Assembly (NCBI GenBank): GCA_008080745.1
Contig: SHMX01000001.1
Coordinates: 600,001 to 632,000 of the forward strand
Reading direction: 5' to 3'
Source of the DNA: Candidatus Thorarchaeota archaeon
GTDB taxonomy: Archaea; Asgardarchaeota; Thorarchaeia; Thorarchaeales; Thorarchaeaceae
Length of the DNA stretch: 32,000 bases
Made by a program: the position numbers and the translations under genes. Of the stretch, positions 288 to 28,123 are shown one piece after another. Below the pieces are notes generated by a model. The model had not been told where the DNA came from. It worked only from the letters and a program-made list of their open reading frames with translations, and made no database searches. How positions within the stretch are numbered: position 1 is the stretch's first letter; every line of letters starts with the position of its first letter.

Positions 288-303
288 TGGTAAGGTGCTA
301 GAG

Positions 304-750
304 ATGACTAAAGATGATGAGCTAGATATTTCATTGGTCTTTGAATTGGGTGAAACAACGTGGAAGGTCTTGGTCACCATGCTTAGCATCAAGAAACCCA
401 TAGGTCCCAGAGAGCTAGCTCGTCATCTTAATCTGAGCAGTCCCAGCGTGGCACTCTACCACCTTGACAAGCTCAAAGAACACGGGCTAGTAACAAAGGA
501 TGTTCATGGCGAATATCAGATAGATCCAAAAGCAGACATAGGATTTCTGGATAATTTCCTATTTCTCAAGCAGAAGATCGTTCCACGGACTTTATTCTAT
601 GCTGTATTCTTGACCATAGTTCTTGCAATATATGTAACCATTGTCAGATTTGACTATGGCATTCATAATGTGTTTGCCCTCGTTCTAGGTATTTCTGGTT
701 GTGCTTTTCTATGGGCGGAAGTCATCCGAATTTGGAAAGGGCTTGTTTAA
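304..750 (+). CDS. Membrane-anchored winged-helix (ArsR-like) transcriptional regulator
   Basis: HTH 'IGPRELARHLNLSSPSVALYHLDKLKEHGLV' plus wing, followed by two C-terminal TM helices. ATG at 304 has AAGGTG upstream; alternative GTG start at 295. Confidence 0.8.
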   Translation: MTKDDELDISLVFELGETTWKVLVTMLSIKKPIGPRELARHLNLSSPSVALYHLDKLKEHGLVTKDVHGEYQIDPKADIGFLDNFLFLKQKIVPRTLFYAVFLTIVLAIYVTIVRFDYGIHNVFALVLGISGCAFLWAEVIRIWKGLV

Positions 751-870
751 TACGGGAAAATATTCCGGAAAACAAGATGTACAAGATAGAGACGTAATCC
801 CATAAGCCCCACAATCAAAACGGCAGATAGAAATCTAATGCGATAGAATTCTCGTAATATTTAATAGTCA

Positions 871-883
871 CCGAACATTTCCC
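871..883 (-). promoter_or_regulatory. Putative TF box (reverse complement GGGAAATGTTCGG) between a TATA-like tract (855-866) and the ATG at 891
   Basis: 12/13 match to GGGAAATATTCGG seen at 2559-2571 (+) and 8532-8544 (-). Confidence 0.55.
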
Positions 884-890
884 ATATATT

Positions 891-1382
891 ATGAAATCGT
901 TGAAGGGTAGAACCATTATTCTTGGTCTGGTTCTCATAATGGCTGTTAGCCTGTTACCAAGTTCTGTTGTTGCGTATTCCAGCAATAGCTCACTGTTATC
1001 AATAACCCATGCCGATTATGGTGACTTGGACGATGACGGAGCAGATGATGATGTAATTACAGAGGCCCGAATTGGGTCGCTCACCGGTTTTCCAGAATTC
1101 ATTATCTGTACAGTGACATTTACACTTACATTACCGTCAGGAGCCAATTATACAACTGACGTAGTGATATGTGGGATATATGATGTAGTAGATCTTACAA
1201 TCGAATGGTACGACCATGCAACCGAATCAGGATGGTATAAGATCCACGCAGAGATGGAATCAGTCACTATGTTATGGGAATTCTCAGCTGATGCATATGT
1301 TATATTCGACCCACCAGAAGAGGGTCCACCAGGTACACCCTGGGTAAGAGTCCTTGTAAATAACCAAGTACCCTTCTGGTAA
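891..1382 (+). CDS. Secreted hypothetical protein with acidic Ca-binding-like motif and Pro-rich C-terminus
   Basis: Signal peptide (MKSLKGR + hydrophobic stretch + VVA/YS); 'DYGDLDDDGADDD'; beta-rich body; 'DPPEEGPPGTP'. Confidence 0.75.
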   Translation: MKSLKGRTIILGLVLIMAVSLLPSSVVAYSSNSSLLSITHADYGDLDDDGADDDVITEARIGSLTGFPEFIICTVTFTLTLPSGANYTTDVVICGIYDVVDLTIEWYDHATESGWYKIHAEMESVTMLWEFSADAYVIFDPPEEGPPGTPWVRVLVNNQVPFW

Positions 1383-1411
1383 TCATGATACTTGTGGGGG
1401 AAACCACATAG

Positions 1412-2530
1412 TTGAGTAATGGCCTTACGGCCAATCATCTCAGAGTGTTAGTTGCTCTTCAACAAATACCCCTTGGTACGTATGACCAACTCTCCGAGAA
1501 AGTAGGCCTAGCAAAATCAGTAGTTTATGGATACGTCCAAGAGCTAGCAGAATGGCCTGGAACTGGAGAGTCCTACTTTGTAGTTGCTGCAAACCCACAC
1601 CTAGAAAATCTAGGACTGCAGCTAGTTGATGTACTTGTGGAGGCAGACAGTGAACCTAAGTTAGAAGCAGTCGAAAGGATTTGTCAGAAACACCCATACA
1701 CGGTATACAGAGCTAGATGTTTTGGAGACACTAATGGCATGCTAACCCAGTTCCGTATACCAATTGGAAACACAGGAAAAATAGAAGAACTCTTCGGCAA
1801 AGCATCAAAAAGAGGGGTTTGTGACGATTTCAAAATCTTACCTTTTGTCGATTCAACACCTACGTACACCACAATGGACATAGATCACTGGAACCATGAC
1901 ATAGGTCATTGGGAATTCAATTGGGAGAAATGGTTTTCAGAAGAAGCCAAACTTAATCAGCCAACAGAAACTAAGCAGGCCCTGGGCTCTGAGAAGTCTT
2001 GGCTATCTCGAGAGGACATCATCATTATTCGAGAATTGACCAAGAACGCACGACAGAAAAACAAAGACATCATGGCGACTTTGAAAAAAGCAGGAATTGA
2101 AATGACTTCTCAGGCGTTTAGCAGAAAATTAGCAAGAATCAAAAAACGATGTATCAATGGATATCGTGTTCAGATAAACCCGTTTGCATTTGATTCTTAT
2201 AATCCAGTTCTTATCTGGGGTGAAGGAAAAATCGAAGATATTCAGTCACTTCAAGCGAGAATTTCAAAGAATCCAATACCATTTACATCAACCTTCAAAA
2301 CAGACGATGGAAATCTGTTCTGGTACCTCCATCTCCCCGCAACACATCTTTCTGATCTCCTCTTTCATCTCCGTCCCATTCTACACGACCTTAGATTTAA
2401 TCACATAGACTATGTACGAAGTAGCACTTACTATCTCTGGCCGGAAACATTCAATGAGAAAGAACACGACTGGAAAAATGATTCCAATTTCATGATTGAC
2501 AGTGTCCTTGACCAGATAAGTGATCGATAA
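1412..2530 (+). CDS. Tandem (HTH + effector domain) x2 Lrp/AsnC-like transcriptional regulator
   Basis: HTH1 'LRVLVALQQIPLGTYDQLSEKVGLAKSVVYGYVQEL' followed by an Lrp-like 'NPHLENLGLQLVDVLVE'; HTH2 'REDIIIIRELTKNARQKNKDIM...SQAFSRKLARI' followed by 'GYRVQINPFAF'. TTG start. Confidence 0.7.
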   Translation: MSNGLTANHLRVLVALQQIPLGTYDQLSEKVGLAKSVVYGYVQELAEWPGTGESYFVVAANPHLENLGLQLVDVLVEADSEPKLEAVERICQKHPYTVYRARCFGDTNGMLTQFRIPIGNTGKIEELFGKASKRGVCDDFKILPFVDSTPTYTTMDIDHWNHDIGHWEFNWEKWFSEEAKLNQPTETKQALGSEKSWLSREDIIIIRELTKNARQKNKDIMATLKKAGIEMTSQAFSRKLARIKKRCINGYRVQINPFAFDSYNPVLIWGEGKIEDIQSLQARISKNPIPFTSTFKTDDGNLFWYLHLPATHLSDLLFHLRPILHDLRFNHIDYVRSSTYYLWPETFNEKEHDWKNDSNFMIDSVLDQISDR

Positions 2531-2558
2531 GGGTATGTAGCAGCCCGCAACCCGTTAT

Positions 2559-2601
2559 GGGAAATATTCGGTAAATATATATAATATGAAGAATATATCC
2601 G
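2559..2601 (+). promoter_or_regulatory. Promoter of the S8 protease gene: TATA box flanked by inverted operator boxes
   Basis: GGGAAATATTC-GGTAAATATATATAATATGAA-GAATATATCCG; GAGAGGT RBS-like motif at about 2631-2637. Confidence 0.7.
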
Positions 2602-2644
2602 CAATATCTCTAGTCTTTATGGACAATAGAGAGAGGTAAACAAA

Positions 2645-4921
2645 ATGAGAATTGAACGGAAAATGCTGGCGGCATTATTATTCATTGCCACCTTATTAAG
2701 TGTGAGCGGGCAATTCTATGGGGCACCCATTCATACACAAGTAATTGTATATGAGCCTGTAGAACAGCCATACTCACCGTCATGGGATTCTGATCTAAAC
2801 AGAATCCACGACGATCTTGATAAGAAACTCAGAGATATGAGTTTTGGTGATTCGGTAAACGTGATAGCCAAAGGCGCATCTATTGAACTACTAGAAGCTG
2901 CTGCTGCGGATTATAATTGTGAGGTCAGTTCACGATATCCAGCTATCAACGCTATAGCTCTTCAAATCGATAAACATCTAATCGATGATTTCAGCAAGGA
3001 CGTTAGAATCCATCATCTTGAGGATGCAGATCTTGAGATGAAGACGTTTCTTGACAGCTCACTAGATGTTACGGAAATACCCGAGGCGTATGCAAATTAT
3101 CCCTACCATGGTGAAGGAATGGTCATTGCCATTGTAGATACTGGTATTGACAACAGCCATATGGACCTAGATGATGACGATCCATATAATGATCATAAAG
3201 TCATAGCATTTAGGGACGTTATCAATGGTAACGACGACTTTTCATTACCCATTGATGCTTATGATGATCAAGGACATGGTACCCATTGTGCCAGCATCGC
3301 TGCTGGAACCGGTGAGGCAAGTAGCGGGCAATACAGAGGTGTTGCATATGCATCACAGCTGGTCGGCGTAAAAGTTCTGAGTGGAGAGGGCAGCGGAACA
3401 GAACAGCAAATCCTTGATGGGATGCAATGGGTCATAGACAATAAGGATGTCTATGGTATAGACATAGTCTCAATGAGTCTAGGATCAAACAGTGCAACTC
3501 CATCTGATGGAACTGATTCACTCTGTCAAATGGCTGATGCAATGATGGATGCGGGATTACTTCTATTTGTAGCGGCTGGTAATCACGGATATCCAGAGTG
3601 GTTGTATGGATACAATACTATTGGATCTCCAGCAGCTTCAGAAAAGGCAGTAACAATCGGTTCCGTTAATGATGATGGAAGCTGGTCTTCATTTAGCAAC
3701 GAGGGGCCAACAGGTGATGACCGCATTAAGCCAGATGTGATGGCAGTTGGAGCTGATGTCACAGCCGCTAAAGCTGATTCGACCAATCAGTATGTGGCAT
3801 ATTCTGGAACCAGTATGGCAACACCAACCGCAGCTGGTATTGGAGCACTTCTGCGCCAAGCAAATCCCAGTCTCAACCCATCTCAATTGAAAGATGTATT
3901 GCAGGATACTGCAATGGATATGGGAGATCCTGGAAAGGACAATACCTACGGTTCGGGAATCATTCAGACCAAGCAGGCTCTTGATGTGGTGACAGGAGGA
4001 ATAGACAATCCACCAACAGTCAGCATCGAGGCACCACTTGACCAGAGTACGGTTTCAGATACCTACCGGATTCTTGTTGCAGCTAGTGACGATAACTCTG
4101 TTACATCCGTTGAGCTTGCAATAGATGGCACTTGGATTGATATTACCGCTAATTATGATGGTACCCATTATTATTATGACTGGGATACAACCACATATTC
4201 CGAAGGACTTCACACTATATCAGCCAGGGCGACCGATGACGCAAGTCAGACTGCTGAGACCACCATTGAAGTAACGGTCTCAAACGAGGGGCCCATTGAC
4301 AATCCACCCACCTGTGTAATAGCTGATCCCACTGAGGGAGAAACAATCACAGGTACTCATAGAATTCTTGTCTCAGCAAGTGATGATAATGGCATCAATG
4401 CTATCGAGGTAAGAATCGATGGGGGAAGTTGGATTGATATAACTGGTAACTTTGACGGTGCATACTATTACTATGACTTTGATTCAACAACTGTTGATGA
4501 TGGAACACATGGAATAGAGGCAAGAGCCATTGATACCATCTCCCAGGCCACTTCTGATACGATTAGTGTCACTGTCGAAAATGAGATTGTTCAAAATGCA
4601 ATGTTTATTGCCGACATAGAGGTCAGTAGTTGGAGCTTTTGGATCTTCACTTATTGTGAAGTCGAGGTCACCATAGTGGCAGGTACACCCTCAGACTATG
4701 TGGGTCTATCTGGTGCAACGGTGAACTTGGAAACAACATCTCCACTGGGAAGTACCAAATCCTATTCTGACACTACCGACTCATCAGGTGTAGCCTACTT
4801 TGACATCGGTTGGATATCTTCAGGTACGTGGGTGTTCAAGGTAATTGATGTCACACATGCCGATTACACATATGATCCATCTCTCAACATAAACGGTGAC
4901 ACCGTAGAAGTGGATCTCTGA
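2645..4921 (+). CDS. Secreted subtilisin-like serine protease (S8) with propeptide, two Ig-like domains and a C-terminal beta-sandwich
   Basis: Signal peptide; catalytic motifs 'IVDTG', 'HGTHCA', 'AAGN', 'GTSMATP'; two 98-aa 'DNPPT...WDTT/FDST...H' Ig repeats starting at 4004 and 4298. Confidence 0.95.
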   Translation: MRIERKMLAALLFIATLLSVSGQFYGAPIHTQVIVYEPVEQPYSPSWDSDLNRIHDDLDKKLRDMSFGDSVNVIAKGASIELLEAAAADYNCEVSSRYPAINAIALQIDKHLIDDFSKDVRIHHLEDADLEMKTFLDSSLDVTEIPEAYANYPYHGEGMVIAIVDTGIDNSHMDLDDDDPYNDHKVIAFRDVINGNDDFSLPIDAYDDQGHGTHCASIAAGTGEASSGQYRGVAYASQLVGVKVLSGEGSGTEQQILDGMQWVIDNKDVYGIDIVSMSLGSNSATPSDGTDSLCQMADAMMDAGLLLFVAAGNHGYPEWLYGYNTIGSPAASEKAVTIGSVNDDGSWSSFSNEGPTGDDRIKPDVMAVGADVTAAKADSTNQYVAYSGTSMATPTAAGIGALLRQANPSLNPSQLKDVLQDTAMDMGDPGKDNTYGSGIIQTKQALDVVTGGIDNPPTVSIEAPLDQSTVSDTYRILVAASDDNSVTSVELAIDGTWIDITANYDGTHYYYDWDTTTYSEGLHTISARATDDASQTAETTIEVTVSNEGPIDNPPTCVIADPTEGETITGTHRILVSASDDNGINAIEVRIDGGSWIDITGNFDGAYYYYDFDSTTVDDGTHGIEARAIDTISQATSDTISVTVENEIVQNAMFIADIEVSSWSFWIFTYCEVEVTIVAGTPSDYVGLSGATVNLETTSPLGSTKSYSDTTDSSGVAYFDIGWISSGTWVFKVIDVTHADYTYDPSLNINGDTVEVDL

Positions 4922-4943
4922 AATCTGTAGAATATCTTCTCCC

Positions 4944-4978
4944 GGAATGAAGGTTCGTCCTTCATTCCTTTTTCTTTT
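4944..4978 (+). terminator. Hairpin plus U-tract terminator after the protease gene
   Basis: Perfect 10-bp stem GGAATGAAGG / CCTTCATTCC, loop TTCGT, followed by TTTTTCTTTT. Confidence 0.75.
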
Positions 4979-5048
4979 CAAACTGGATTCGTTTCCTTGA
5001 CTGAAAAAGAAGAGTAAGCATTACTTTTTAACAGGCTTCGATAAATGG

Positions 5049-6263
5049 ATGTCCGAGGGACGATATTTGGTTTGGTCGATTCCAAAGAGGAATACGCTCT
5101 TTTTGATTTTGATAATGGTCAGCCTTTGTTCGTCCATAACCAGTATTGAAGAATACACCTTAGCAGATCAAAACATAGAAACCCGAGCTGTCTGGCTAAA
5201 CCATTATGCCTTCAATTCTGATGCAAAACGGAATGAAACATTAGAAAAGATTCGTTCAGCAAACCTGAACACGGTATTAATGATATCTCCTCCGATAGGA
5301 GATAACAACGGTTGGTCCGAGATAGAGGATTTCTCAGAAATGCTAGAAGAGTTGGTAGAATATGACATAAGTGTACATGCTTGGATTGCCAACCTATACA
5401 GAGTAAAAGGACAAAGAGCCGATTTTAGTAACACCACGGAACAGTCAGAGCAAATCAATTGGGCATTGGAAATTCTGCGCACATATCCAAAACTCGATGG
5501 AGTTCATTTTGATTACATACGAACAGAGAATTTGGATTACGTTAATGCAACAAAAATGAACGCAATCAGTTCCGTGATTGAACACACCAAAGAGAGAATC
5601 AGAGAAGAGTTTCCCGAAAAATACCTTACCACCGCCGGATGGTCTCTATCAGGAGAGATAAGGACACCACAAGACGAGCTTCCCGAATGGTATCTCGAAT
5701 GGTTCAATCAGTATGAAGACGATCCAGTAAACAGATGGAGTAAAGCCGCTTACAGCCACAATGGACATCCCACATGTTTTGGTGTTCAGCAAGATCCTGT
5801 AATTTGGCTATCTCAAGGCGAATTGGATTTTCACATCTCGATGGAGTATTGTTATGAAACAGACTGGTGGACAGGTGAAGTGGATATCTGGAATACCTTC
5901 CCCTACGAGGTGGTGGAACATATCTTCATGGGACTTGGTTGGTATTCAGGAGTTTGGGAGGAGGAGAGCTACACAGAAGAAATGGTTGCAACAGAGATTG
6001 TGAATAAGATTCAGTACGGCAGATCTCATAAAATCACAGGATTCAGTATATTCGAACTTGGTGAGCCTTACAACAATGATAGTATTCTAATCTCGAAACT
6101 GGCAGGAGATGAAAATGATCCATTCTGGAACAAGGCAATATCCGGATTCAAAGCTGAATCTCATAGTCCTATTGACCTTTTCCAAGAGAATATCTTCCCA
6201 ATAGCTCTGATAGGAATCATATCACTAGTTGTTGTATATGCAATCAAAAGGAAGAGAAAATAA
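5049..6263 (+). CDS. Exported glycoside hydrolase-like family 10 (GHL10/DUF187, YddW/DigH-like) protein with C-terminal membrane anchor
   Basis: 'RAVWL...NLNTV', 'ISVHAWI' and 'LDGVHFDYIR' motifs; N-terminal hydrophobic signal; C-terminal TM plus KRKRK. Confidence 0.75.
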   Translation: MSEGRYLVWSIPKRNTLFLILIMVSLCSSITSIEEYTLADQNIETRAVWLNHYAFNSDAKRNETLEKIRSANLNTVLMISPPIGDNNGWSEIEDFSEMLEELVEYDISVHAWIANLYRVKGQRADFSNTTEQSEQINWALEILRTYPKLDGVHFDYIRTENLDYVNATKMNAISSVIEHTKERIREEFPEKYLTTAGWSLSGEIRTPQDELPEWYLEWFNQYEDDPVNRWSKAAYSHNGHPTCFGVQQDPVIWLSQGELDFHISMEYCYETDWWTGEVDIWNTFPYEVVEHIFMGLGWYSGVWEEESYTEEMVATEIVNKIQYGRSHKITGFSIFELGEPYNNDSILISKLAGDENDPFWNKAISGFKAESHSPIDLFQENIFPIALIGIISLVVVYAIKRKRK

Positions 6264-6264
6264 G

Positions 6265-6296
6265 AAAAAAGGAACCTCAGAGGGGTTCCTTTTTTT
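6265..6296. terminator. Bidirectional hairpin terminator between the convergent GHL10 and esterase genes
   Basis: AAAAAAGGAACCTC-AGA-GGGGTTCCTTTTTT: stem with an A-run before and a T-run after. Confidence 0.75.
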
Positions 6297-6301
6297 ACAT
6301 G

Positions 6302-8479
6302 TTATTCTATCTGTTTTCGAATTATATCAAAGATAGAGAAATCCAATAGGATGTTAGAACCAGTGGTTTGGTATGTCAGAGTCACCGTAAGTTCATAGGA
6401 TCCCGATCCCCAATAACTATGGACCATGATATACATGACCCCAGTAGAGGGGTTTTCAATGGTGATATCCTCGCCACCCCATGTACTTGCCTTGAAGTCA
6501 TAGTTAGAAGTAGTTGGCTCGGAACCCATTTTACCATATATGTCAAAATCTGTGAACCATCCAGAAGATAGTTGAACTCGCATTGACACACAGTCTTGAT
6601 CGATTACTATGAACCAAACTTCACTTGATCCACTGGAAAGGGAACCACCAACCGGAACTCCATTCTCCAGTTCATTCTCTACAGCATTTAGCACTTGCAC
6701 CGTGATTTCAGCTGACCCAACATTTCCTGCTGCATCTGCTGCCTCACAAGTAATTATGTGGTCTCCATCGGTATAACTGGTAGTATCCCAGGTAAAGGAG
6801 GAATCAGTAGAAACCTCAATACCATCAATCAATATGCGATAACTAGTCACACCTACATCATCAGTTGCAGAAAAATCGATGTTTGCATTTCCAGACACGG
6901 TTGCTCCATCAACAGGGGATAGAATTTCTACCTCTGGAGGAGTAGTATCAATATATGAATTATCAACTACAACAGAGATTGACGAACTTCCAAGATTGCC
7001 ACTAGTATCAATAGCCTCACAAAGAATAGTATGATATCCATCTTCGTAAGTTTCCGTGTCCCACAGGTAGTGGGTTTCGGCAGATACTGAAATACCATCA
7101 ATCTTGATACAGTATGAGTCAACACCCTTGTCATCTTCTGCTGAGAAGATTATTTCAACGACATCCTTCACAGTTGCACCATCTGTTGGTTGACTAATTG
7201 TTACTACAGGCAGGGAATCATCTATATTATCGACAGTAACAGATATCTCTTCAGAACCCTGGTTGCCCAATGTATCGATTGCTTCGCACCGTATGAAGTG
7301 GGTACCATCGGACCATCCAGTTGAGTCCCAGTGGTATGTGTTCGATTCTGATACAAGAACATCATCAATGTAGGTCTTTATTTCTGAAACACCGCTTTCA
7401 TCTTGAGCTGAAAAGCTAATAGTAACGATGCCATCCACAATAGAACCGTCAGTGGGGGATTCAATTGTTATTGTTGGAGGAGTCTGATCGATTCCTTCAT
7501 GAGTACGAGCCTCAACGATTCCTGCATTTACATCAGCATCGAGCTCTTCACCAAAAAGATACTTATGAAATGATACATCACCAACTAAGAAATATTGAAG
7601 ATGAGCTATAGCATATTTACAAGCAAGTCTATGGTGTTCCTCAAGACTTATTGTAGGACTATTATCACCCATTCCGCTATTTTCATCCATGTATTGATAG
7701 TGATTTGCACCAACTATACCAATAAAGATCTTTGACACATCTGAGAGTGTACCATATACATAATCAGGATCGTTTCTAGCAACGTCATCCAATGTTCCTT
7801 TTTGAATCATTCCAGGAACATCAATTCCAGCAACCTCATCATACATATCAGGATCAGGCTGTCCAGGAAACATATTCGTCTTGTTTGCAGGAGCCATCGC
7901 AATAAATGTGCTGATTCGAGAATCACGATTTGTTGCCAACAATATAGCCCGAGCTCCCATTGAGTAGCCTACTGCAGCAAACTTTGATACATCGAACATT
8001 CCTGCGAGGAAATAGGAAGTATCAGCGTTCCTATTAATCACCCAATCAATACAATCAGAAATATCCTGTGCATTTCTTTCATGATTAGTTGAAAACAACC
8101 CATCACTAAAGTCAATGACAGCAACTATGTAACCCCAGCTTGCCTGCCATTCTGCATACCACTCATATTGAGATGGATCAGAATTGAATCCCCTCCCAAA
8201 TATGACGACAGGATATGGAGCGTTATCCTGTGAAGGATTTGTATCAGTACCACCTTCTGTTGCAGGATAGTATAATTCAACGTCTATGGTGTACCCAGAT
8301 TCATCCACGAAACTTCCTGTTGTGAACCCTACTTGATAGGCACCAGGAGAATCAGGAGAAGTTGTAGAGAGTCTACTAAATCTGACAGCAACACTTTCTG
8401 TGGAAGTCTGAAAGCCAGAATACAGGACTCCACTAGTAATGATGGTCAGAAGTAGTAAGATAGCAAATGTCTTTTTCAT
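6302..8479 (-). CDS. Secreted alpha/beta hydrolase (cutinase/PETase/chlorophyllase-like) with three Ig-like domains and a PPC domain
   Basis: Signal peptide; 'PYPVVIFGRGF', 'ASWGYIVAVID', nucleophile 'VGYSMGA', acid 'GTLDDVA', His 'GANHY'; three '(D)xxPP/LP...WD(S/T)...DG.H.I.CEA' repeats; PPC-like 'DFDIYGKMGSEPTTSNYD...YIMVHSY'. Confidence 0.85.
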   Translation of the reverse strand: MKKTFAILLLLTIITSGVLYSGFQTSTESVAVRFSRLSTTSPDSPGAYQVGFTTGSFVDESGYTIDVELYYPATEGGTDTNPSQDNAPYPVVIFGRGFNSDPSQYEWYAEWQASWGYIVAVIDFSDGLFSTNHERNAQDISDCIDWVINRNADTSYFLAGMFDVSKFAAVGYSMGARAILLATNRDSRISTFIAMAPANKTNMFPGQPDPDMYDEVAGIDVPGMIQKGTLDDVARNDPDYVYGTLSDVSKIFIGIVGANHYQYMDENSGMGDNSPTISLEEHHRLACKYAIAHLQYFLVGDVSFHKYLFGEELDADVNAGIVEARTHEGIDQTPPTITIESPTDGSIVDGIVTISFSAQDESGVSEIKTYIDDVLVSESNTYHWDSTGWSDGTHFIRCEAIDTLGNQGSEEISVTVDNIDDSLPVVTISQPTDGATVKDVVEIIFSAEDDKGVDSYCIKIDGISVSAETHYLWDTETYEDGYHTILCEAIDTSGNLGSSSISVVVDNSYIDTTPPEVEILSPVDGATVSGNANIDFSATDDVGVTSYRILIDGIEVSTDSSFTWDTTSYTDGDHIITCEAADAAGNVGSAEITVQVLNAVENELENGVPVGGSLSSGSSEVWFIVIDQDCVSMRVQLSSGWFTDFDIYGKMGSEPTTSNYDFKASTWGGEDITIENPSTGVMYIMVHSYWGSGSYELTVTLTYQTTGSNILLDFSIFDIIRKQIE

Positions 8480-8501
8480 TTTGCAGTCTCCATTGTGGGT
8501 A

Positions 8502-8544
8502 GGGAAATATTCTTTTAATTATATATATCTGCCGAATATTTCCC
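8502..8544 (-). promoter_or_regulatory. Promoter of the esterase gene: TATA box flanked by a perfect 11-bp inverted repeat
   Basis: Minus strand reads GGGAAATATTC-GGCAGATATATATAATTAAAA-GAATATTTCCC, ending 22 nt before the ATG. Confidence 0.75.
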
Positions 8545-8677
8545 TTATTTGCAATAACAGATTCATTCGGAAATCAAACTAGCATAAATGAAAATTCGAA
8601 ATTGTGATTCAGCGGAAGAGTGCTAATATAGCAAAGTCATAATACAGACGACACATTATTAGAATATGGTGTACTAA

Positions 8678-8896
8678 ATGAAAGAAATAGCAATTAAAGA
8701 CCATGAGAAGGGTGGAACCTACAAGATATATGTCAAGCGCGAAGAAGATGGTGGAATTGCTATTTATAAAAAGCCTGATGACCCAAAAAAGTTTGTATCA
8801 ATTGTTGGAAATCGGGTATATATCCATGGAGACTGGATTAGTTCCGAGGCATTCAAAGTAGTTGCTTCTGTAATCGATTGTATCGACCTGATCTAA
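8678..8896 (+). CDS. Small soluble hypothetical protein
   Basis: 72-aa ORF with ATG preceded by GGTG, natural-looking composition, fills an otherwise long intergenic gap. Confidence 0.6.
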   Translation: MKEIAIKDHEKGGTYKIYVKREEDGGIAIYKKPDDPKKFVSIVGNRVYIHGDWISSEAFKVVASVIDCIDLI

Positions 8897-8951
8897 AAGC
8901 CAATAATGTGCCACAAACTAAGGTGTAAAATACTCTCATAAGAATTATATG

Positions 8952-9027
8952 AGGAAATATACACTGTAATCATTGGTGTGTATCTAAGGTTATCATAGAG
9001 GAGATGGCCTTAATCAGGAAATATACA
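8952..9027 (+). repeat. 12-bp direct repeat AGGAAATATACA (8952-8963 and 9016-9027) upstream of the giant surface protein gene
   Basis: Two exact copies 64 bp apart; shares the GGAAATAT core with the protease/esterase boxes. Confidence 0.6.
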
Positions 9028-9043
9028 GAAGAGGCAAAACAGG

Positions 9044-12000
9044 ATGCGATGGCGTCGCTTGACCCCTGTTCTAGCCCTGATGTTTCTATTAGTTGGTTCA
9101 ACCTTATCAGGCTATCCAGCGATAGATGATGAGCAAGAGAATCAATCTGAACCGAATAGGGCGGAGAGTTCAGTACCGGACAACAGAAATGAAGGGGTCA
9201 ACCCAAAGAGGATATTAACAGAGGGTGGTTCAAAGACAGGTGTTCTAGAACCATTATTAGTGGAAACCATAGGTTATTACTCAACGGGAACTATCAGCAC
9301 GATTACTGCACCGGGTTTTAATGAAACCTTCGGGCTCCCAATTGATACAGATAACAACTGGAAAGCAAGTCTAACCGAAATCAGTTTGTGGAATCTTGAA
9401 CGACTCTATGCGATTAATGGAACGTTTGATGATGGAATTCCAGGATTCAACCAAAATCCCAATGGGTCAGTATCATATTATCCATATGGCTGGGATGCGT
9501 ATAGCAATAACACAGACCCAGATAGCGAACAGATTCAAACGGCTGGATATGATACAACTACACCATCATATATCAAATTGGAAAACCAAGGAAAGAAAGA
9601 CGGACCGTCAGGAAGGAAATTCGACCATTTTGCGGGGACATGGGTAAATTGGATACAGACCGTTAGCAACACACCATTGATTCAAAATTTCATACTAAAT
9701 TTTGATTACATTTACACATCTGGTCCGCTACATAGATCAGGCGGTGTATCTCTTGATGGTAATTGTTCACTAAAAATCTATGTGAACAATACGGAGGCAT
9801 GGAGCCAGACCCTGACTACACTTGACTCTCGAGGAACTTGGTATGAAAGTGGCGCGATTAATATCAGCCTTTCCACAGTAGGAAACTTCGATTTTAAAAT
9901 CGTATTAGAGATTGATAAAAACTTCAATGACCTAAATGCAGAGAATGATTATGATAATGATGGAATCGATGATGGGATAGCAAATGCTGCTTACATTACA
10001 GTTAACGTAGACAACGTCCATCTTATTGGAGAAATTCCTCCAACGCCAGAAAGTGTTGGGCTTCAATTTGAGGCGAATACTAATTCCACTAATATAGAAG
10101 GGTCATCAGGAATAGGAAACGCAACAATACAATCGGAAAGTTACTGGACAGATTCACCAGTTAACATCACATTATCATCCAATGTCAGCGTATCATACGA
10201 TTATGAATCTAGACTACTAAACCACAGATTTACAAATTCATCGTGGACTACAGATAATTCAAAGCAAGGTATTGCCTATTCTATAGAACCCAATTCCAGC
10301 TCAAATAATGAATTATACTTCTACCTTGGTTCAACAAGCACCTATGAAGACCAAGAGATATTTTTGTATTATCCAAAGGATTGGGATAATGCCACGATAT
10401 ATGACCCATTTCTTAATGATGTTACTTCACAGTGTACAATTACAAGTGGAGAGATTACGATTCCCACATCACTATTCAGTAGGTTAGGTTGGTGGGAAAT
10501 TACAATAGACTCACCCAATTATGCTGCAAATGCAACAGTTCAAAAATATGACAGCTCACTAGGACAATGGGAAAATAGTTCTACGTTCAGAAGCGGAAAC
10601 GAAACCAGAGCAACGATAGAGATTAGGCATAACACAGACCAACCCATTTTACAACATCCAGTTAATGTTTCACTCATAATGCCAAATGGAACGGTCTGGG
10701 CTGATGATTCCACTACTAATGATATAGGATACACGGTAAACACAAGCTCATGGACATTGGATGGACTAAACACAACAGCAGGTCAATGGTTCTATGATTA
10801 CATTTGGAGTAATGGAACTGAAGTAGCGTATGGAACTACACACTTAGAGTTGTACCATGCATCAACTTTGACACCAATCAATTCCCTTATTGAAACAGAC
10901 CATGGGTTAGTTGTAACTAACTTCATTCAGTTTGTGGACGCAGATAATGGTCAATATTTGATGAGTGATGCAGCCACAATCAAAGGTAATTGGTCAGGAA
11001 GCTTTGTCAACTTCGAACCAAATCTACTAAGAAATTGGTGGGAAGGAAGCTTTGATACCTCACTTGCGTCTAACGGTCAATTCACGGTAGTAGTAAATGC
11101 CTCACAACCATATTATGACTCTGTCAGTTGTCAATTCGTTATCGAGTCAATATATCCAACTTTGTTTACACTGACCAATGTAGGATCTGACCCTGTTGAA
11201 ACTGAAGTGTTTATGGATGAATCAATAGATTTGACCTACACTTTTGAAAATGGAACCGGAATTGTCGGTGCAGATATTCAGATGAGCTACTCGGGACCAT
11301 CAGGAGGACTAAACCAAGGAACAACAAATGATCATGGAGATGGAAACTATACAGTTACTATTACCACTCTTCAAACAGGGACCTATACAGTCACTCTGAC
11401 CGGAGTTAAAGACTACTACGAAACAACTCAAAAATCATTCACTCTTCTTGTGGGTAAGATAGATACTGACTTGACAAGTATGAATGGAACCTCAGATATA
11501 CAAGAAGTATTCCAGAGTTACAATCTCACAGTATTTTACGAGAACTCAACAGGAGATGGTCTGGGAGAATCTACTGTTCAAATAACTTCGATGTCGCCAA
11601 GCTCAGGAGTGTCCTATGGTGCTTTTGTAGATGATACAAATGGCTATTATTCAATCGAACTGACTCCAATGCAGGCTGAAACATACACATTCACTATACA
11701 AGCTAACCTATCTAATCATGAAACACAGACAACAACCTTTGTCTTAGCGGTCACACAAGTTCAGACTTCACTTACTGTAAACTTTTCGTCCGTAAGTATG
11801 GGTCTTACAGACACACTATTTGTTCAGGCATCCTATGTAGATGTCTACTCAAATGGACTTGAATCTGCAACAATCTCAGTTATAGATCAACCCGCAGCAA
11901 TTTCAGTAGATATCCAAGAGGGAGTGAATGGTAACTACTCGATTTCAATTCAATCATCACTGGTTGGCACATATATTCTAAGATTCTCAGCAAATCGAAC

Positions 12001-15000
12001 TAATTACGAAACGAGTTATGCTTCATTTTCACTGACGGTTAACCCAATTGGAACCAATTTCCAAAGTGTTAACGGAACTTCTGGGATAGTGGAGATTCTT
12101 GATGAGTATAGGCTAGTTGTCAGATATACGAACAGTACGGGATATGGTTTGGATGGAGCAAATATCCAAATTACAGCTGTAACCCCAACGACGGGGCTTG
12201 CAAATACATCATTTTCATATCTCTATGATGGGTACTATTACATTTTATTGACACCTGAAAATAAGAATACATTCACCATCGAAATCAGAGCAGAACGTCT
12301 GAATCATGCTACCAGAATTCTAACTTTTACTCTTAGTGGTTCAGAAATCCCCACAACACTTACAGCTAATATAACAAGTGCAACACTACCTGTTTATGAT
12401 TCAATAGAAGTACAGGTATCATTTGTAGATAAATATTCAAATGGTATAGAAGGAGCAACAATTAGCATAATAAATCAACCAGTAAATGTTAGTGTGACCA
12501 TTCAAGAGGTATCCGATGGAAACTATACTCTCACCTTGAGCGCTAATCTTCAAGGAACGTATCTCATAAAGGTGGGAGCCAATCGGTCAAATTACGATGA
12601 TGGAATTACCTCATTCTCACTGGTATTTGAACCAAAGGCATCGTCACTTCTTCGGGTTAATGGAACATCAGGTATAATGCAAGTCAATCAGTCGTATAGA
12701 TTAGTCATTCAATATCTAAATGGTACTGGATCTGGACTGGAAAATGCAACAACAACCATAGTTGAAATTTCACCATCCATAGGATTATCATATGGTGCTT
12801 TTAGTGAGGAGGCAGAAGGGTATTATTCGATATATCTATCCCCACAAAACACTGAAACATTCACCATTGTGATTAGAGCAAATATTACAAATCATGTCAC
12901 CCAAACAACTACTTTCACCTTGACCGGATCGGAGATTCCCACATCTTTTGTATTCAACATAACCAGCGCCACAATCGCTATTTCTGACGTTCTGGATGTC
13001 CAAGCTTCTTTCGAAGACTTCAATGGTAACGGATTAGATGGGGCCACATTGAATCTTGTTGATTCATATTCTGGATTAGATATCGGTATCACGGAAGTAA
13101 ATGATGGAAATTATACCATCACTGTGATTGCTAACGAGTCTGGAAGTTACTTGATAACTATAGCTGCTAGTGTCCCGAACTACCAGAGTCAAGTGAAATC
13201 ATTTTCTGTTATTGTAGAGTCCATTGGAACAAAAATACAAATCCTGAATGGTTCTTCTGCAATGATACAATATGGAGAAAATTATTCTGTTGTGATTCAA
13301 TACACTAACAATACAGGGTATGGTCTTGATGATGCAAATATTACTGTTCTAAGTATTAATCCAGAGGGAGGTATGAGTGTTGATGATGCAATACCTTTGG
13401 GAGAGGGATGTTTCCAGGTTGTCCTGAAACCAACCCTAACTGCCACCTACTCGATCCTCTTTCAAGCAAATCGAACAAATCACGTCACAAGAACCATAAC
13501 ATTCACATTGACTGTGAGCGACATCCCATCCATTCTTACTGTAAACACTGGAAGTAAAACAATTGCTTTGGATCAGACTTACACATTACAACTAATTTTC
13601 ACTGATGAGGATATAATGCCTCTTGACTCTGCCACGATTATTGTATTAGACCCACCCAATAGTCTCGAGTTCTCTGATGTGATTTCATTAGGCTCGGGAA
13701 AATATAACATCACAATAACACCAAGTGTAATTGGAGCATATACTCTTGCATTTCGGGCCGTTCAATCAAATTATGAGAATGCAACAGTTGGATTCAGCCT
13801 TATAATAATTGAAATCCCAACAGAGCTTTCATTCATGGGAGAATCATCCGCTTCGATTAGATTCAAAGATTCCTATGAGATAGTTATTCAATATATAAGA
13901 ACAGACTTGGTAGAAAATATCACAGAGGCTCAAATCAACTTTTACACAACCGACTCTGAAGGGCTAAATATTACAATCTCTGAGCTGGACGGACTATATT
14001 ATGTGAGAATTACAGCTTCATCTACGGGAACATGGACCCTGACTGTATCTGCATCCAGAAACAATTATCAGTCAAAATCGAAACAGTTCATACTAGAAGT
14101 TCAAAATATAGAAACAGAAACAATTCCCAATTATGACTTGGGACAAGTAGTCTATGGACGAGTCTATGAAATAGTAGCTGAATATATTTTCTCAAATAAC
14201 GAGAGTCATATTATCAATGCAAATTCAATTGTATTAGGCGACTCTATAGAATGGTTCGAAATCGTCAATTCGGAGAATGGTAGTTATATCATCAAACTGA
14301 ACCCCAATGCGTTAGGAAGATATCAGACAACAATTAGGTTGGAAAAAGAGGGATTTGAATCTCAAAGATTTCTGATTGACTACACAGTGGTTCAAGTCCC
14401 AATAGATGTTGAAGTCCTCTCATCGATGAGTGTTATGGAGGGAATGGACTTTGAGGTGAGAATAAGACTTTTTGAGAGTGACACCGGGAACCCAATAAGT
14501 GAAGCGGATGTCACTTGTGGAATCTCTCTAAATGGTAATGAGCCATCAAACGAAATCGAGATGACAGAGATAGAAGCTGGAATTTATGTTGCGACTATTA
14601 CCATGCCAATCGCATATGGTGAAGAAACCTACACATTGAGAATATTTGTGGATAAGGAATATCATACTTTGGAGGACACCTATTTTGAAACTAACCTTAT
14701 ACCCAGGTATAATGATAGTGCACGATTAACAGCAGCGGTTGTAGGCTGGTCGCCAATAATAGCTTTATTGATTGGCGGCCCATTGTTTCTTATAGTAGGA
14801 TATCGAATCTATGACAAGCGAAAACGGACTAGAATTCTTAGAAATCAAGCCGTTAAACGTCAGTTCGATGATTTACATAACCTGATTGGAGTTCTAGTTC
14901 TTCATAGGTCTAGCGGATTGCCGGTCTACTCAAAATTCCTTCGTGGAGGCTTTGATGAAGCCATGATATCTGCATTCATCACAGCTGTAACACAATTCAG

Positions 15001-15493
15001 GTTGGAGGTTGAACAGGAAAGCGAGATACCTGATGATGCACTAATCCCAGTGTCTGATATTATCAGAGTGATCTCAACAGAAACGCTAATCTGTGCATTC
15101 ATCACGGTACGAAGTCCTTCAATGTTCCATAGGGAGAAAATGATTGAATTTGGAGAAACAGTAGGAAATCAGTTTGATGAGATATTCAGACTGACTCCAG
15201 CAGAGGTTCTTGATGGAGATACACAAGATAGATTCGATGCCCTTTTTGATGAGATACTTGACGGAGCACTGCTGAAGAAATATAGACTTGATGATGATAA
15301 AGCAATTCCAAGAGATATGAGATGCCTAGAATTGGGCGCAGATGCCATGGAAAAGGGAGAGCTCGATCTTGATGAGTTGGCCAAGAAGATGGCAATGTGC
15401 GGACTTGAAGAGGGGAGGGTGTATTATCTAATCATGGAAGCTATAAAGAAAGACCTCATAAAACCTGTTGAAGGCTCTGCAGACACATACTAA
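9044..15493 (+). CDS. Giant type I membrane/cell-surface protein (2149 aa): signal peptide, large ectodomain with tandem Ig-like repeats, single TM, cytoplasmic longin-like plus winged-helix-like tail
   Basis: Many N-x-S/T sequons; alternating Ig-like repeats; TM about 14732-14803 followed by basic 'DKRKRTR'; 'LIGVLVLHRSSGLPVYSK...DEAMISAFITAVTQF' resembles a longin beta-beta-alpha start. Confidence 0.85.
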   Translation: MRWRRLTPVLALMFLLVGSTLSGYPAIDDEQENQSEPNRAESSVPDNRNEGVNPKRILTEGGSKTGVLEPLLVETIGYYSTGTISTITAPGFNETFGLPIDTDNNWKASLTEISLWNLERLYAINGTFDDGIPGFNQNPNGSVSYYPYGWDAYSNNTDPDSEQIQTAGYDTTTPSYIKLENQGKKDGPSGRKFDHFAGTWVNWIQTVSNTPLIQNFILNFDYIYTSGPLHRSGGVSLDGNCSLKIYVNNTEAWSQTLTTLDSRGTWYESGAINISLSTVGNFDFKIVLEIDKNFNDLNAENDYDNDGIDDGIANAAYITVNVDNVHLIGEIPPTPESVGLQFEANTNSTNIEGSSGIGNATIQSESYWTDSPVNITLSSNVSVSYDYESRLLNHRFTNSSWTTDNSKQGIAYSIEPNSSSNNELYFYLGSTSTYEDQEIFLYYPKDWDNATIYDPFLNDVTSQCTITSGEITIPTSLFSRLGWWEITIDSPNYAANATVQKYDSSLGQWENSSTFRSGNETRATIEIRHNTDQPILQHPVNVSLIMPNGTVWADDSTTNDIGYTVNTSSWTLDGLNTTAGQWFYDYIWSNGTEVAYGTTHLELYHASTLTPINSLIETDHGLVVTNFIQFVDADNGQYLMSDAATIKGNWSGSFVNFEPNLLRNWWEGSFDTSLASNGQFTVVVNASQPYYDSVSCQFVIESIYPTLFTLTNVGSDPVETEVFMDESIDLTYTFENGTGIVGADIQMSYSGPSGGLNQGTTNDHGDGNYTVTITTLQTGTYTVTLTGVKDYYETTQKSFTLLVGKIDTDLTSMNGTSDIQEVFQSYNLTVFYENSTGDGLGESTVQITSMSPSSGVSYGAFVDDTNGYYSIELTPMQAETYTFTIQANLSNHETQTTTFVLAVTQVQTSLTVNFSSVSMGLTDTLFVQASYVDVYSNGLESATISVIDQPAAISVDIQEGVNGNYSISIQSSLVGTYILRFSANRTNYETSYASFSLTVNPIGTNFQSVNGTSGIVEILDEYRLVVRYTNSTGYGLDGANIQITAVTPTTGLANTSFSYLYDGYYYILLTPENKNTFTIEIRAERLNHATRILTFTLSGSEIPTTLTANITSATLPVYDSIEVQVSFVDKYSNGIEGATISIINQPVNVSVTIQEVSDGNYTLTLSANLQGTYLIKVGANRSNYDDGITSFSLVFEPKASSLLRVNGTSGIMQVNQSYRLVIQYLNGTGSGLENATTTIVEISPSIGLSYGAFSEEAEGYYSIYLSPQNTETFTIVIRANITNHVTQTTTFTLTGSEIPTSFVFNITSATIAISDVLDVQASFEDFNGNGLDGATLNLVDSYSGLDIGITEVNDGNYTITVIANESGSYLITIAASVPNYQSQVKSFSVIVESIGTKIQILNGSSAMIQYGENYSVVIQYTNNTGYGLDDANITVLSINPEGGMSVDDAIPLGEGCFQVVLKPTLTATYSILFQANRTNHVTRTITFTLTVSDIPSILTVNTGSKTIALDQTYTLQLIFTDEDIMPLDSATIIVLDPPNSLEFSDVISLGSGKYNITITPSVIGAYTLAFRAVQSNYENATVGFSLIIIEIPTELSFMGESSASIRFKDSYEIVIQYIRTDLVENITEAQINFYTTDSEGLNITISELDGLYYVRITASSTGTWTLTVSASRNNYQSKSKQFILEVQNIETETIPNYDLGQVVYGRVYEIVAEYIFSNNESHIINANSIVLGDSIEWFEIVNSENGSYIIKLNPNALGRYQTTIRLEKEGFESQRFLIDYTVVQVPIDVEVLSSMSVMEGMDFEVRIRLFESDTGNPISEADVTCGISLNGNEPSNEIEMTEIEAGIYVATITMPIAYGEETYTLRIFVDKEYHTLEDTYFETNLIPRYNDSARLTAAVVGWSPIIALLIGGPLFLIVGYRIYDKRKRTRILRNQAVKRQFDDLHNLIGVLVLHRSSGLPVYSKFLRGGFDEAMISAFITAVTQFRLEVEQESEIPDDALIPVSDIIRVISTETLICAFITVRSPSMFHREKMIEFGETVGNQFDEIFRLTPAEVLDGDTQDRFDALFDEILDGALLKKYRLDDDKAIPRDMRCLELGADAMEKGELDLDELAKKMAMCGLEEGRVYYLIMEAIKKDLIKPVEGSADTY
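11460..14105 (+). repeat. Intragenic tandem repeat of a two-domain (A+B) Ig-like unit with 588-nt (196-aa) period; four full units plus an extra A
   Basis: Asn codons of the NG(T/S)S motif at 11483, 12071, 12659 and 13247, exactly 588 nt apart; copies are diverged at DNA level. Confidence 0.85.
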
Positions 15494-15554
15494 TGACAAT
15501 GCTTTCGCTTCTAAATCGAAAGAATCCTTTATGAGATGTGTCATAATCAAAATC

Positions 15555-15986
15555 ATGAAAACGCGGGTGTTATATTTGGGACTAGAGGGAAAATCTCGGA
15601 GACAAGTTTTGGCAATAATCGGATGTATAGTTCAATTAGGTTTTGGAGTGTGGCATTTTGCTGTTCCAAATCTCTATGACTGGTATACATACCTTCAAGA
15701 TATTCCACAGGAACTCATCAATGGTATAAACGCAACGAACTTTTTCCTTTCAGCTTTGATGACATTAACAGCCATCTATGCAATGTACATCTTCATCACA
15801 TCATGGGATCTTATAAAAAACCGAGATGCGCTGCTCATCATCCTATCCATCTTGTGGGTCTCACGCACAGGATATCAATTAGTTGTACCGCAGGGTACTA
15901 TGATTCCGGGATTATCAACAGTATTGCTAGTAGTATTCGGCCTCACTGCTTTGACCTTCATCATACCTTTACTTGGGAGAGAATAA
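15555..15986 (+). CDS. Hypothetical membrane protein (about 4 TM)
   Basis: Hydrophobic helices; ATG at 15555 avoids overlap with the upstream gene; stop lies 1 nt before the DUF362 start. Confidence 0.65.
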   Translation: MKTRVLYLGLEGKSRRQVLAIIGCIVQLGFGVWHFAVPNLYDWYTYLQDIPQELINGINATNFFLSALMTLTAIYAMYIFITSWDLIKNRDALLIILSILWVSRTGYQLVVPQGTMIPGLSTVLLVVFGLTALTFIIPLLGRE

Positions 15987-27641: not shown

Positions 27642-28046
27642 ATGGTGAAAGAGATGGATAAGACGGAGAAAGATTGGAAACTCGAATTATCGCCAGAACA
27701 ATATCGGGTACTAAGACAATGTGGAACAGAACCACCATTTAGTGGAAAATATGTGCATCATAAAGAAGATGGAACCTATGTCTGTGCAGGTTGTGGAGCT
27801 GAACTGTTCTCATCAGATAAAAAATTCGAGTCAGGAAGTGGTTGGCCGAGTTTTTGGGACAAGATTTCGGAAGATAGTGTAGAGCTAAAACGAGATACCA
27901 GTCATGGTATGATTAGAACTGAGGTTGTTTGTGCCAATTGCGGAGGACATCTTGGTCATGTATTTAGAGATGGACCAAATCCAACTGGTTTGCGTTATTG
28001 TATCAATTCTGCAGCATTGGATTTTAAATCAAAAGAGAAGAATTGA
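27642..28046 (+). CDS. msrB: Peptide-methionine (R)-S-oxide reductase MsrB
   Basis: 'GTEPPFSG', '[22 protein letters not shown]', '[30 protein letters not shown]'. Confidence 0.97.
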
Positions 28047-28123
28047 ATGCATAAATTATTTTAATTTTAGCACCAATTTTTGAAAAGAAGGATATATCAA
28101 GAGCTGGTTCAATACACAGTTGG

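Follow-up and report, generated by a model that had tools for sequence, protein, structure and literature searches.

Gene content of the locus

The window studied here is a 32,000-nucleotide (nt) stretch of a Candidatus Thorarchaeota genome (contig C1, positions 600001-632000, of genome G000, 3.16 Mb in 19 contigs); G- and L-numbers below are labels of related genomes and loci. Between positions 295 and 15493, the window encodes, in this order, regulator 1, a small protein, regulator 2, an S8 protease, a protein of 404 amino acids (aa), an esterase on the minus strand, an open reading frame (ORF) of 72 aa and a giant protein. We describe in this region what is probably a small, locally encoded regulon, whose likely regulator is the 372-aa tandem Lrp/AsnC-like regulator 2 and whose genes share a short promoter box. 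The closest homologues of the window proteins are labelled Thorarchaeota, the more distant ones Lokiarchaeota or Promethearchaeota. Two DNA runs of one marine-sediment metagenome study contain the stretch and may be its source; no RNA run is among those listed for it.

An earlier note on this DNA took positions 295-15493 for a single regulon, in which two regulators stand together upstream of five genes for exported proteins. Five such proteins are indeed encoded: the small protein, the protease, the 404-aa protein, the esterase and the giant protein each start with a basic-then-hydrophobic export segment. The regulators are another matter, as the actual gene order splits them and regulator 1 belongs with the gene of a 631-aa membrane protein.

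The small protein (891..1382, plus strand, 163 aa), an exported beta-sandwich protein with a signal peptide, is the first gene of a cassette; the gene of regulator 2 follows after 29 nt, with no TATA tract in the gap. The secreted subtilase (2645..4921, plus strand) comprises a signal peptide, a propeptide region, an S8 domain, two Big_7 modules and a C-terminal beta domain. It matches the full Pfam Peptidase_S8 profile with 201 bits and has the triad motifs DTG165, HGTH211 and GTSMA388, which makes it a member of the S8 family. The esterase (6302..8479, minus strand) is a PETase/cutinase-like alpha/beta hydrolase with three Big_7-type immunoglobulin (Ig) modules and a C-terminal beta domain. 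Its assignment relies on the Pfam PETase profile (PF12740, 55.1 bits against a cut-off of 28), on Big_7 and Big_3_3 matches and on a GYSMG motif at residue 171. Protease and esterase share the Big_7 module, as the earlier note had seen from their common class of Ig domain.

Boxes around the TATA tract

In its extended form of 13 bp the box reads GGGAA-ATA-TTCGG, that is, five bases, three A/T and five bases. The operator of the S8 protease (2559..2601, plus strand) consists of a distal box (2559-2571), a TATA tract (~2573-2587) and an inverted proximal box (2589-2601), with two mismatches to a perfect palindrome and a spacer of 21. That of the esterase (8502..8544, minus strand) is a perfect 11-bp inverted repeat with 0 mismatches around a 21-bp TATA-containing spacer, its proximal arm ending 22 nt from the ATG. 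At both promoters the distal box ends 1-2 nt ahead of the TATA tract, at the expected position of the transcription factor B recognition element (BRE), and the proximal box is positioned between TATA and the expected start site. The GAA-WWW-TTC cores lie 30 bp apart, centre to centre, which is close to three helical turns.

The small-protein/regulator-2 operon has a proximal box (871..883, minus strand), reading GGGAAATGTTCGG on the minus strand, between a TATA-like tract (~857-866) and the ATG of the small-protein gene at 891. Ahead of the giant gene, box 1, AGGAAATATACA (8952..8963, plus strand), stands directly 3' of a TATA-like tract; box 2 (9016..9027, plus strand), a 12-mer identical to box 1, is separated from the ATG by 16 nt (18 nt when counted from the 10-mer core). 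This confirms the earlier count: among the genes of the exported proteins, four of five have a box upstream, namely those of the small protein, the S8 protease, the esterase and the giant protein. The exception is the 404-aa gene, upstream of which no box occurs within 1 mismatch. A variant box with one extra A relative to the consensus, GGGAAAATATTCCGG (754..768, plus strand; repeat family D2), follows the stop codon of regulator 1.

The window contains seven exact matches to the pattern GGAAATRTWC, where shuffles predict 0.57, and six of them are intergenic (873, 2560, 8503, 8534, 8953 and 9017). Genome-wide there are 72 matches, about chance density, of which nine are intergenic, six of the nine in this stretch. 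All three genomic copies of the exact 12-mer GGAAATRTTCGG lie here; the exact 11-mer GGGAAATATTC has four genomic copies, of which the three intergenic ones are all at the protease and esterase promoters. In a scan for palindromes with spacers of 12-30 bp, the esterase and protease sites rank first and second genome-wide (0 and 2 mismatches), and with up to 4 mismatches allowed they are the only intergenic ones in the 3.16-Mb genome.

A genome-wide regulon, which the earlier note had proposed to look for by motif scan, is rejected. Off-locus matches with at most 1 mismatch are intergenic at ~10%, the frequency predicted from the intergenic share of the genome, and no second TATA-flanking palindrome of this kind emerged from the genome scan. 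Taking a regulon to mean a shared operator at two or more separate promoters, we find the box at four, two of which conserve it elsewhere; the putative regulon is local.

Cassette and operator in other genomes

We compared 28 loci around members of the regulator 2 family. A small-protein homologue lies immediately upstream of the regulator 2 homologue, on the same strand, in 25 of them. An S8/Big_7 protease adjoins this cassette in about 10 loci, across two clades of a tree of 27 family members; orthologues of the protease of the window do so in 9-10 other loci. In the tree, regulator 2 of the window groups with its homologues from G013 (65% identity) and L032 (61%), both S8-adjacent, and a second well-supported clade is also mostly S8-adjacent. 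Regulator 1, the 404-aa protein, the esterase and the giant protein have homologues beside none of the other cassettes examined.

The succession of box, TATA tract and box is found again in at least six genomes, at the promoters of S8 and small-protein genes. In the S8 promoters of L032, G013, G007, G012 and G002, a gcGGAAA..TTC(G/A)G-type box precedes the TATA tract by 2-5 nt, and in most cases an inverted ...TTTCCC or related box follows it; beyond these elements the sequence is unalignable. At the small-gene promoters of ten genomes, including G013, L032, G002, G017, G009 and G001, a ...TTTCCC-type box is placed between TATA and ATG, with an inverted partner further upstream at several of them (G001, G009). 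G002 has the same 15-mer, TACATTTTCCCAAAC, in both its S8 and small-gene promoters, and G007 likewise the same 11-mer, TTGCATAATCC.

The proteins at these loci are 36-68% identical, the S8 proteins 52-68%. Because neutral intergenic DNA should not align at such distances, the promoter boxes amount to a phylogenetic footprint: the box is a real element that related genomes conserve. In several genera of Thorarchaeota, the conserved core consists of the S8 protease, the small protein and regulator 2, each with the operator. Of the synteny and motif conservation that the earlier note had proposed to check, this core with its operator is kept in relatives, and the island as a whole is not.

Other members of the family show related arrangements. 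A distant paralogous cassette on contig C11 of G000 (~27700-28400) has a divergently transcribed S8 protease and its own TATA-flanking inverted repeat of another sequence, GGAATT...AATTCC, so that each paralogue may own a private operator of the same design. TATA-flanking inverted repeats also occur at the small-gene promoters of the paralogues L013, L014, L020, L028 and L030, but with an enrichment too modest, by rough count, to be relied on. Cassettes that lack an S8 gene (L012, L013, L015, L021 and L033) are often accompanied by a divergent gene of 135-213 aa, whose product has a beta domain in common with the C-terminal region of either the S8 protease or the esterase.

Regulator 2, a single-chain tandem Lrp-like protein

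Regulator 2 (1412..2530, plus strand, 372 aa) consists of two halves, each a helix-turn-helix (HTH) with an alpha/beta-sandwich. The N-terminal HTH is of the AsnC/HTH_24 type: Pfam HTH_24 matches residues 7-46 with 22.2 bits (cut-off 21.9) and the G013 orthologue with 32 bits. Faint HTH_AsnC-type and Lrp/LrpA matches at residues 198-268 correspond to the second HTH. The Pfam family AsnC_trans_reg has no match in regulator 2, and a sequence search of the PDB with it gave no match to any chain. The start of the protein is given differently in its stored protein cluster, which is 361 aa long and begins 11 residues later (window 1412-1444); the TTG start at 1412 is supported by the conservation of residues 5-17 across orthologues.

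The AlphaFold2 (AF2) model of regulator 2, with a predicted local distance difference test (pLDDT) score of 91.5, shows two HTH and alpha/beta-sandwich units. In Foldseek, each of its halves matches Lrp/AsnC regulators (2cyy, 2e1c and 1ri7, among others; template modelling (TM) score by target 0.6-0.72, probability 1.0), and the PH1519-DNA complex is among these matches. In the alignment A1, both HTH units have Lrp-like recognition-helix signatures, with R214, K216, Q234, F236 and R238 invariant or nearly so. Each Lrp-like unit is followed by a Trp-rich extension, and W160, W167, W171, W174 and W354 are invariant.

Regulator 2 does not take the form of a single, dimerising chain of ~150 aa with one HTH and one RAM (regulation of amino-acid metabolism) domain. 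It has 372 aa and two HTH and sandwich units, and its 168 strong relatives are all ~360-400 aa when full length; we therefore treat it as Lrp-like in its working and as part of a distinct, fused family. The family has 523 representative clusters, is not a Pfam family and is multi-copy: G000 has 5 members, and 24 of 41 related genomes contain matches.

Over the full length, the best Foldseek match is the siroheme decarboxylase NirDL (E 2e-10, TM by query 0.52). We tried this enzyme family as a candidate and rejected it: the match is one of fold alone, and the neighbours of regulator 2 are exported proteins and S8 proteases, not genes of haem synthesis. NirDL/AhbAB (PDB 4ch7, 4czc) resembles regulator 2 as the only solved structure with a fused tandem Lrp-like architecture. 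It differs in sequence (14% identity), and regulator 2 has secreted-protein neighbours, a conserved operator and several paralogues per genome.

Archaeal Lrp proteins, or feast/famine regulatory proteins (FFRPs), bind sites of 13-15 bp with the form abcdeWWWe'd'c'b'a', for instance CCGAAA[AAT/ATT]TTTCGG (PMC2715240). The box GGGAA-ATA-TTCGG fits this form except for its asymmetric outer bases. Such asymmetry (GG...GG) is in keeping with regulator 2, since its two HTH units are non-identical.

Comparison with a same-genus genome

The comparison genome of the same genus, G001 (4.3 Mb), keeps the order of the 739-aa protein, the 631-aa membrane protein, regulator 1, the 404-aa protein, the 72-aa ORF, the giant protein, a DUF362 protein and further genes. 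Two blocks are missing from it: the first holds the small protein, regulator 2 and the S8 protease (window ~752-4990), the second the esterase with its promoter (window ~6264-8600), and both carry the operator in G000. Similarity to G001 ends right after the stop codon of regulator 1, and the variant box at 754..768 marks the left edge of the first insertion. The GC content of the insertions is unremarkable. Neither of them shows signs of mobile elements, such as target-site duplications or flanking repeats, and the box is the sole repeated element. The stretch is a mosaic of two insertions in a conserved backbone and not one unit.

The giant gene belongs to the backbone. The 72-aa ORF and the intergenic DNA ahead of the giant gene are 84% identical overall between G000 and G001, and at the place of box 1 there are 4 substitutions inside the box, at that of box 2 a 6-nt gap exactly there. 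No exact copy of the 12-mer GGAAATRTTCGG occurs in the 4.3 Mb of G001, whose best relative of regulator 2 has 41% identity. In this comparison boxes and cassette go together, both in G000 and neither in G001. In G000 alone the esterase and, perhaps, the giant gene would have been wired into the regulon, the giant protein being a possible peripheral member.

These observations bear on the model of the earlier note, according to which one local regulator, be it regulator 1 or regulator 2, turns on the whole set of five exported proteins as a single 'external digestion and adhesion' island, the GHL10-like glycosidase (the 404-aa protein) included. The adjacency of all the genes, the export signals of the five products and the boxes at four of five are what commends it. 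Against it, the 404-aa gene is box-free and has its promoter in common with G001, a genome without the module, where it is also the backbone neighbour of regulator 1; the stretch is composed of two insertions; and the box positions do not favour activation. We hold this model to be improbable. With it falls the regulon spanning 295-15493, two of whose genes appear from this synteny to be neighbours by insertion history and to lie outside the regulon. The proposed dismantling of bacterial envelopes had rested on the GHL10 gene, the one without a box.

Regulator 1 (295..750, plus strand) could itself be imagined to bind the box. It is an ArsR/Lrs14-like winged-helix protein (Pfam HTH_20/HTH_5; a weak NCBIfam Lrs14 match), tethered to the membrane by two C-terminal hydrophobic segments within residues 94-147. 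Its gene occupies the left end of the locus, the variant box follows its stop codon, and winged-helix dimers bind palindromes. Yet it adjoins the cassette in 0 of ~30 related loci, and its conserved partner is a different gene, that of the 631-aa membrane protein, whose stop codon it follows after 8 nt, a pairing kept in G001 and G015. Its orthologue in G001, which directly adjoins the 404-aa orthologue, is 93% identical, yet G001 has the exact 12-mer neither in its 4.3 Mb nor at the syntenic promoters. Binding of the box by regulator 1 is very improbable.

A probable assignment of the operator to regulator 2

We assign the operator to regulator 2 because the pair of regulator 1 and the membrane protein is conserved separately and because G001 has a near-identical regulator 1 orthologue without the box. 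If the operator is real, the combined evidence of gene order, fold and site form makes regulator 2 the likely protein for the box.

Several points weigh against this reading. The enrichment within the genome is partly circular, because the pattern GGAAATRTWC was derived from these same sites; the independent support for the box is its conservation in other genomes, a stronger test than the counts within one. There, the six genomes do not count as six independent observations, because orthologous promoters descend from a common ancestor. The boxes of the giant gene are weaker copies in direct orientation, with A for T at one core position and an unusual spacing of 64 bp. Their gain in G000 and their loss in G001 are indistinguishable, because an outgroup orthologue of the giant gene was not found, the other matches being paralogues at no more than 45% identity. 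Upstream of the 72-aa gene (L048 ~17395-17410), G001 has a box-like GGAAATATCT despite its lack of the module, where G000 has GGAAGAGTGC; the resemblance may be fortuitous, or the site may serve another paralogue. DNA binding by regulator 2 is not guaranteed either, because its best full-length structural match, NirDL, is an enzyme. Lastly, the protease and esterase promoters are identical at 36 of 43 positions, spacer included, and a duplicated promoter of shared ancestry could by itself explain this pair.

The last point can be extended to a purely historical explanation, in which the esterase promoter was copied from the protease promoter and the other boxes are chance or ordinary promoter sequence. 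The shared spacer, the recent arrival of the esterase and the shortness of the single boxes speak in its favour. However, the perfect symmetry of the esterase inverted repeat is not needed for a plain copy, and the flanks beyond 43 bp are unrelated. Across genera, with S8 proteins 52-68% identical, it is the boxes that are kept and not the spacers or flanks, and the box is no general promoter feature of this genome. This makes the historical explanation quite unlikely.

The match with NirDL raises another alternative: a true operator bound by a factor encoded elsewhere, be it an Lrp-type paralogue, a winged-helix protein or a specialised TFB/TBP, with regulator 2 perhaps not binding DNA, like NirDL. 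The genome does hold at least five regulator 2 paralogues and many winged-helix genes, and adjacency is no proof of binding. On the other hand, box and regulator 2 cassette accompany each other in different genera, the variant changing in step with the cassette, and box and cassette agree in their presence and absence between G000 and G001. Both HTH units have the Lrp-like recognition-helix signatures of alignment A1, and NirD-type Pfam families leave regulator 2 unmatched even at E-values up to 10. A distant factor thus seems unlikely to us.

A possible mechanism and its relation to known systems

For regulator 2 as the binder, a mechanism can be proposed from the promoter architecture. One fused molecule would cover one 13-bp box through its two HTH units. 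At the protease and esterase promoters, the paired inverted boxes would then cover the BRE position and the stretch from TATA to the start site. The small-protein/regulator-2 operon would be autoregulated, as its promoter has a box between TATA and ATG. The bound regulator might block TBP/TFB or RNA polymerase, and this repression might be relieved by an effector on the two RAM-like domains, whose presence suggests a small-molecule signal. As a guess, the effector could be amino acids or other products of proteolysis, which would close a loop with the secreted protease.

From a site immediately downstream of TATA, LrpA prevents the recruitment of polymerase and so acts as a repressor, and activators such as Ptr2 bind immediately upstream of the BRE (PMC2995911). 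Each regulated promoter here has a box in the LrpA-like position, to which the protease and esterase promoters add one at the BRE position. For this reason we lean slightly towards repression that an effector lifts, rather than activation or dual control. The earlier idea of one local regulator for an exported toolkit is plausible in as far as a local regulator and a shared operator are concerned; that it 'switches on' the toolkit is unsupported, as boxes flanking the TATA tract fit repression at least as well.

Compared with the archaeal Lrp/AsnC regulators FL11, LrpA, Ptr2 and Ss-LrpB, each half of regulator 2 resembles their HTH and RAM architecture at the level of fold, and the GAA-WWW-TTC core has their abcdeWWWe'd'c'b'a' form (PMC2715240). 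Archaeal Lrp sites lie two or three helical turns apart, and autoregulation is usual (PMC2995911); here too, paired sites ~three turns apart lie beside or over BRE and TATA or between TATA and the start, and autoregulation is predicted. The differences lie in the fusion of two units in a 372-aa chain, the Trp-rich extensions, the missing AsnC_trans_reg match and the asymmetric outer bases of the box. The targets also differ, being secreted hydrolases and not genes of amino-acid metabolism, and the gene of regulator 2 always has that of a small exported protein as its partner.

In the local regulons of TrmB/TrmBL1 in Thermococcales, the regulator is encoded beside its targets, recognises a palindromic motif and represses or activates depending on its position relative to BRE and TATA. 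Their targets serve the uptake and breakdown of external polymers, as shown experimentally. The system of regulator 2 differs from them in protein family, motif and lineage. In Bacillus subtilis, CodY, AbrB, ScoC and DegU tie the secreted subtilisin (aprE) to nutrient and amino-acid status. Control of aprE differs by its bacterial sigma-factor promoters and unrelated regulators, and amino-acid sensing in our case is suggested by the RAM-like domains.

The general principle is not new, because local Lrp-type regulons with operators around TATA are well known in archaea. What is new is the fused regulator family, its fixed partnership with a small exported protein, the conserved link to a subtilase and the evidence for an expansion of the regulon in one genome. 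In the literature searched on Asgard archaea we found no described regulon of this kind, in agreement with the earlier note. Almost nothing is known of gene-specific transcription control in Asgard archaea, most of which cannot be grown, and the locus offers the concrete pairing of a soluble, 372-aa protein with a 43-bp operator. Extracellular protein breakdown is thought to be important for the carbon turnover of marine sediments, and a secreted subtilase as the conserved target bears on when sediment Thorarchaeota invest in it. At the level of sequence, the comparison with G001 illustrates how genes can be added to a local regulon, and it corrects the impression of one functional island of neighbouring genes.

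A bolder and less likely reading would have regulator 2 found an Asgard-centred family of single-chain tandem Lrp proteins, which sense products of extracellular proteolysis and gate the subtilase through a TATA-clamping operator; the circuit would be caught growing, a newly acquired orphan esterase and a giant gene already in place having joined it through gain of these boxes. If this holds, the tandem Lrp protein and its TATA clamp would be the first directly testable Asgard regulator-operator pair and a clear natural example of regulon growth by operator capture.

Exported proteins

In the family of the small protein (alignment A6), an acidic loop Y-x-D-x-D-x-DG-xx-DD at residues 43-54 is invariant and looks like a calcium site, and a C-terminal FDPP..G.PG.P motif is conserved. 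The AF2 model of the small protein is all-beta, with a pLDDT of 88. A fold search with it returned only generic beta-sandwich matches, among them the Wzt C-terminal domain and MD-1/MD-2, none of them decisive; a weak match to the intracellular proteinase inhibitor of B. subtilis, at rank 32, is a lead at most. A hairpin followed by a T-run (4944..4979, plus strand), a putative terminator read from the sequence, separates the protease gene from the 404-aa gene.

The catalytic domain of the esterase, which lies in the second insertion, has no homologue in 40 relatives, and a single match, with 26% identity, among 5.8 billion proteins. With these results no donor can be named.

The giant protein (9044..15493, plus strand) is a 2149-aa, single-pass surface protein with Ig-like repeats and matches to Pfam Big_1, Filamin and CarboxypepD_reg. 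Its hydrophobic segments span residues 6-27 and 1892-1923 and leave a cytoplasmic tail of 226 aa. The tail (window 14813-15490) is of no known family and resembles stand-alone proteins of ~230 aa from Promethearchaeota/Thorarchaeota, with a feature score of 0.92. The G001 orthologue is 78.8% identical over the full length (tblastn) and 73% over the first 500 residues. An ORF of 172 aa (15468-15986), whose product has five hydrophobic segments, overlaps the end of the giant gene; because conservation in G001 is limited to the last 42 residues, it is doubtful whether its start is right or whether it is a gene.

Backbone genes and assembly

The 404-aa protein (5049..6263, plus strand) is a membrane-anchored, glycosidase-like protein, probably a TIM barrel, with N- and C-terminal hydrophobic segments. 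Its neighbours in a search of Atlas structures are GHL10/DUF4015 clusters (TM 0.61-0.67 over ~270-300 residues), and its feature neighbours, at 0.85-0.87, are again DUF4015/GHL10, rated as a lead only. It has no Pfam match at E-values up to 10 save a spurious DUF1554; the GHL10 profile (PF02638) is unmatched, and a precomputed GHL10 domain occurs in 0 of 31 homologues. The GHL10 glycosidase of the earlier note survives in this way as a possible resemblance of fold and not as a profile match.

The 72-aa ORF (8678..8896, plus strand) is a conserved backbone gene upstream of the giant gene, 86% identical in G001, with no export signal and no Pfam family. NCBIfam scans with regulator 1, the small protein, regulator 2, the 404-aa protein and the 72-aa ORF gave sub-threshold matches only.

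The 631-aa protein encoded before regulator 1 is a polytopic membrane protein (L039 10392-12287) of no Pfam family, and its pairing with regulator 1 is looser in three other genera. Upstream of its gene, two tandem paralogous ORFs of ~65 aa (L039 ~9605-9808 and 9990-10194) are each followed by a hairpin and a T-run. As for the assembly of G000, the short contigs C14, C15, C17, C18 and C19 have a GC content of 62-65%, against ~41% in the remainder, and are probably binning contamination (reported contamination 4.8%).

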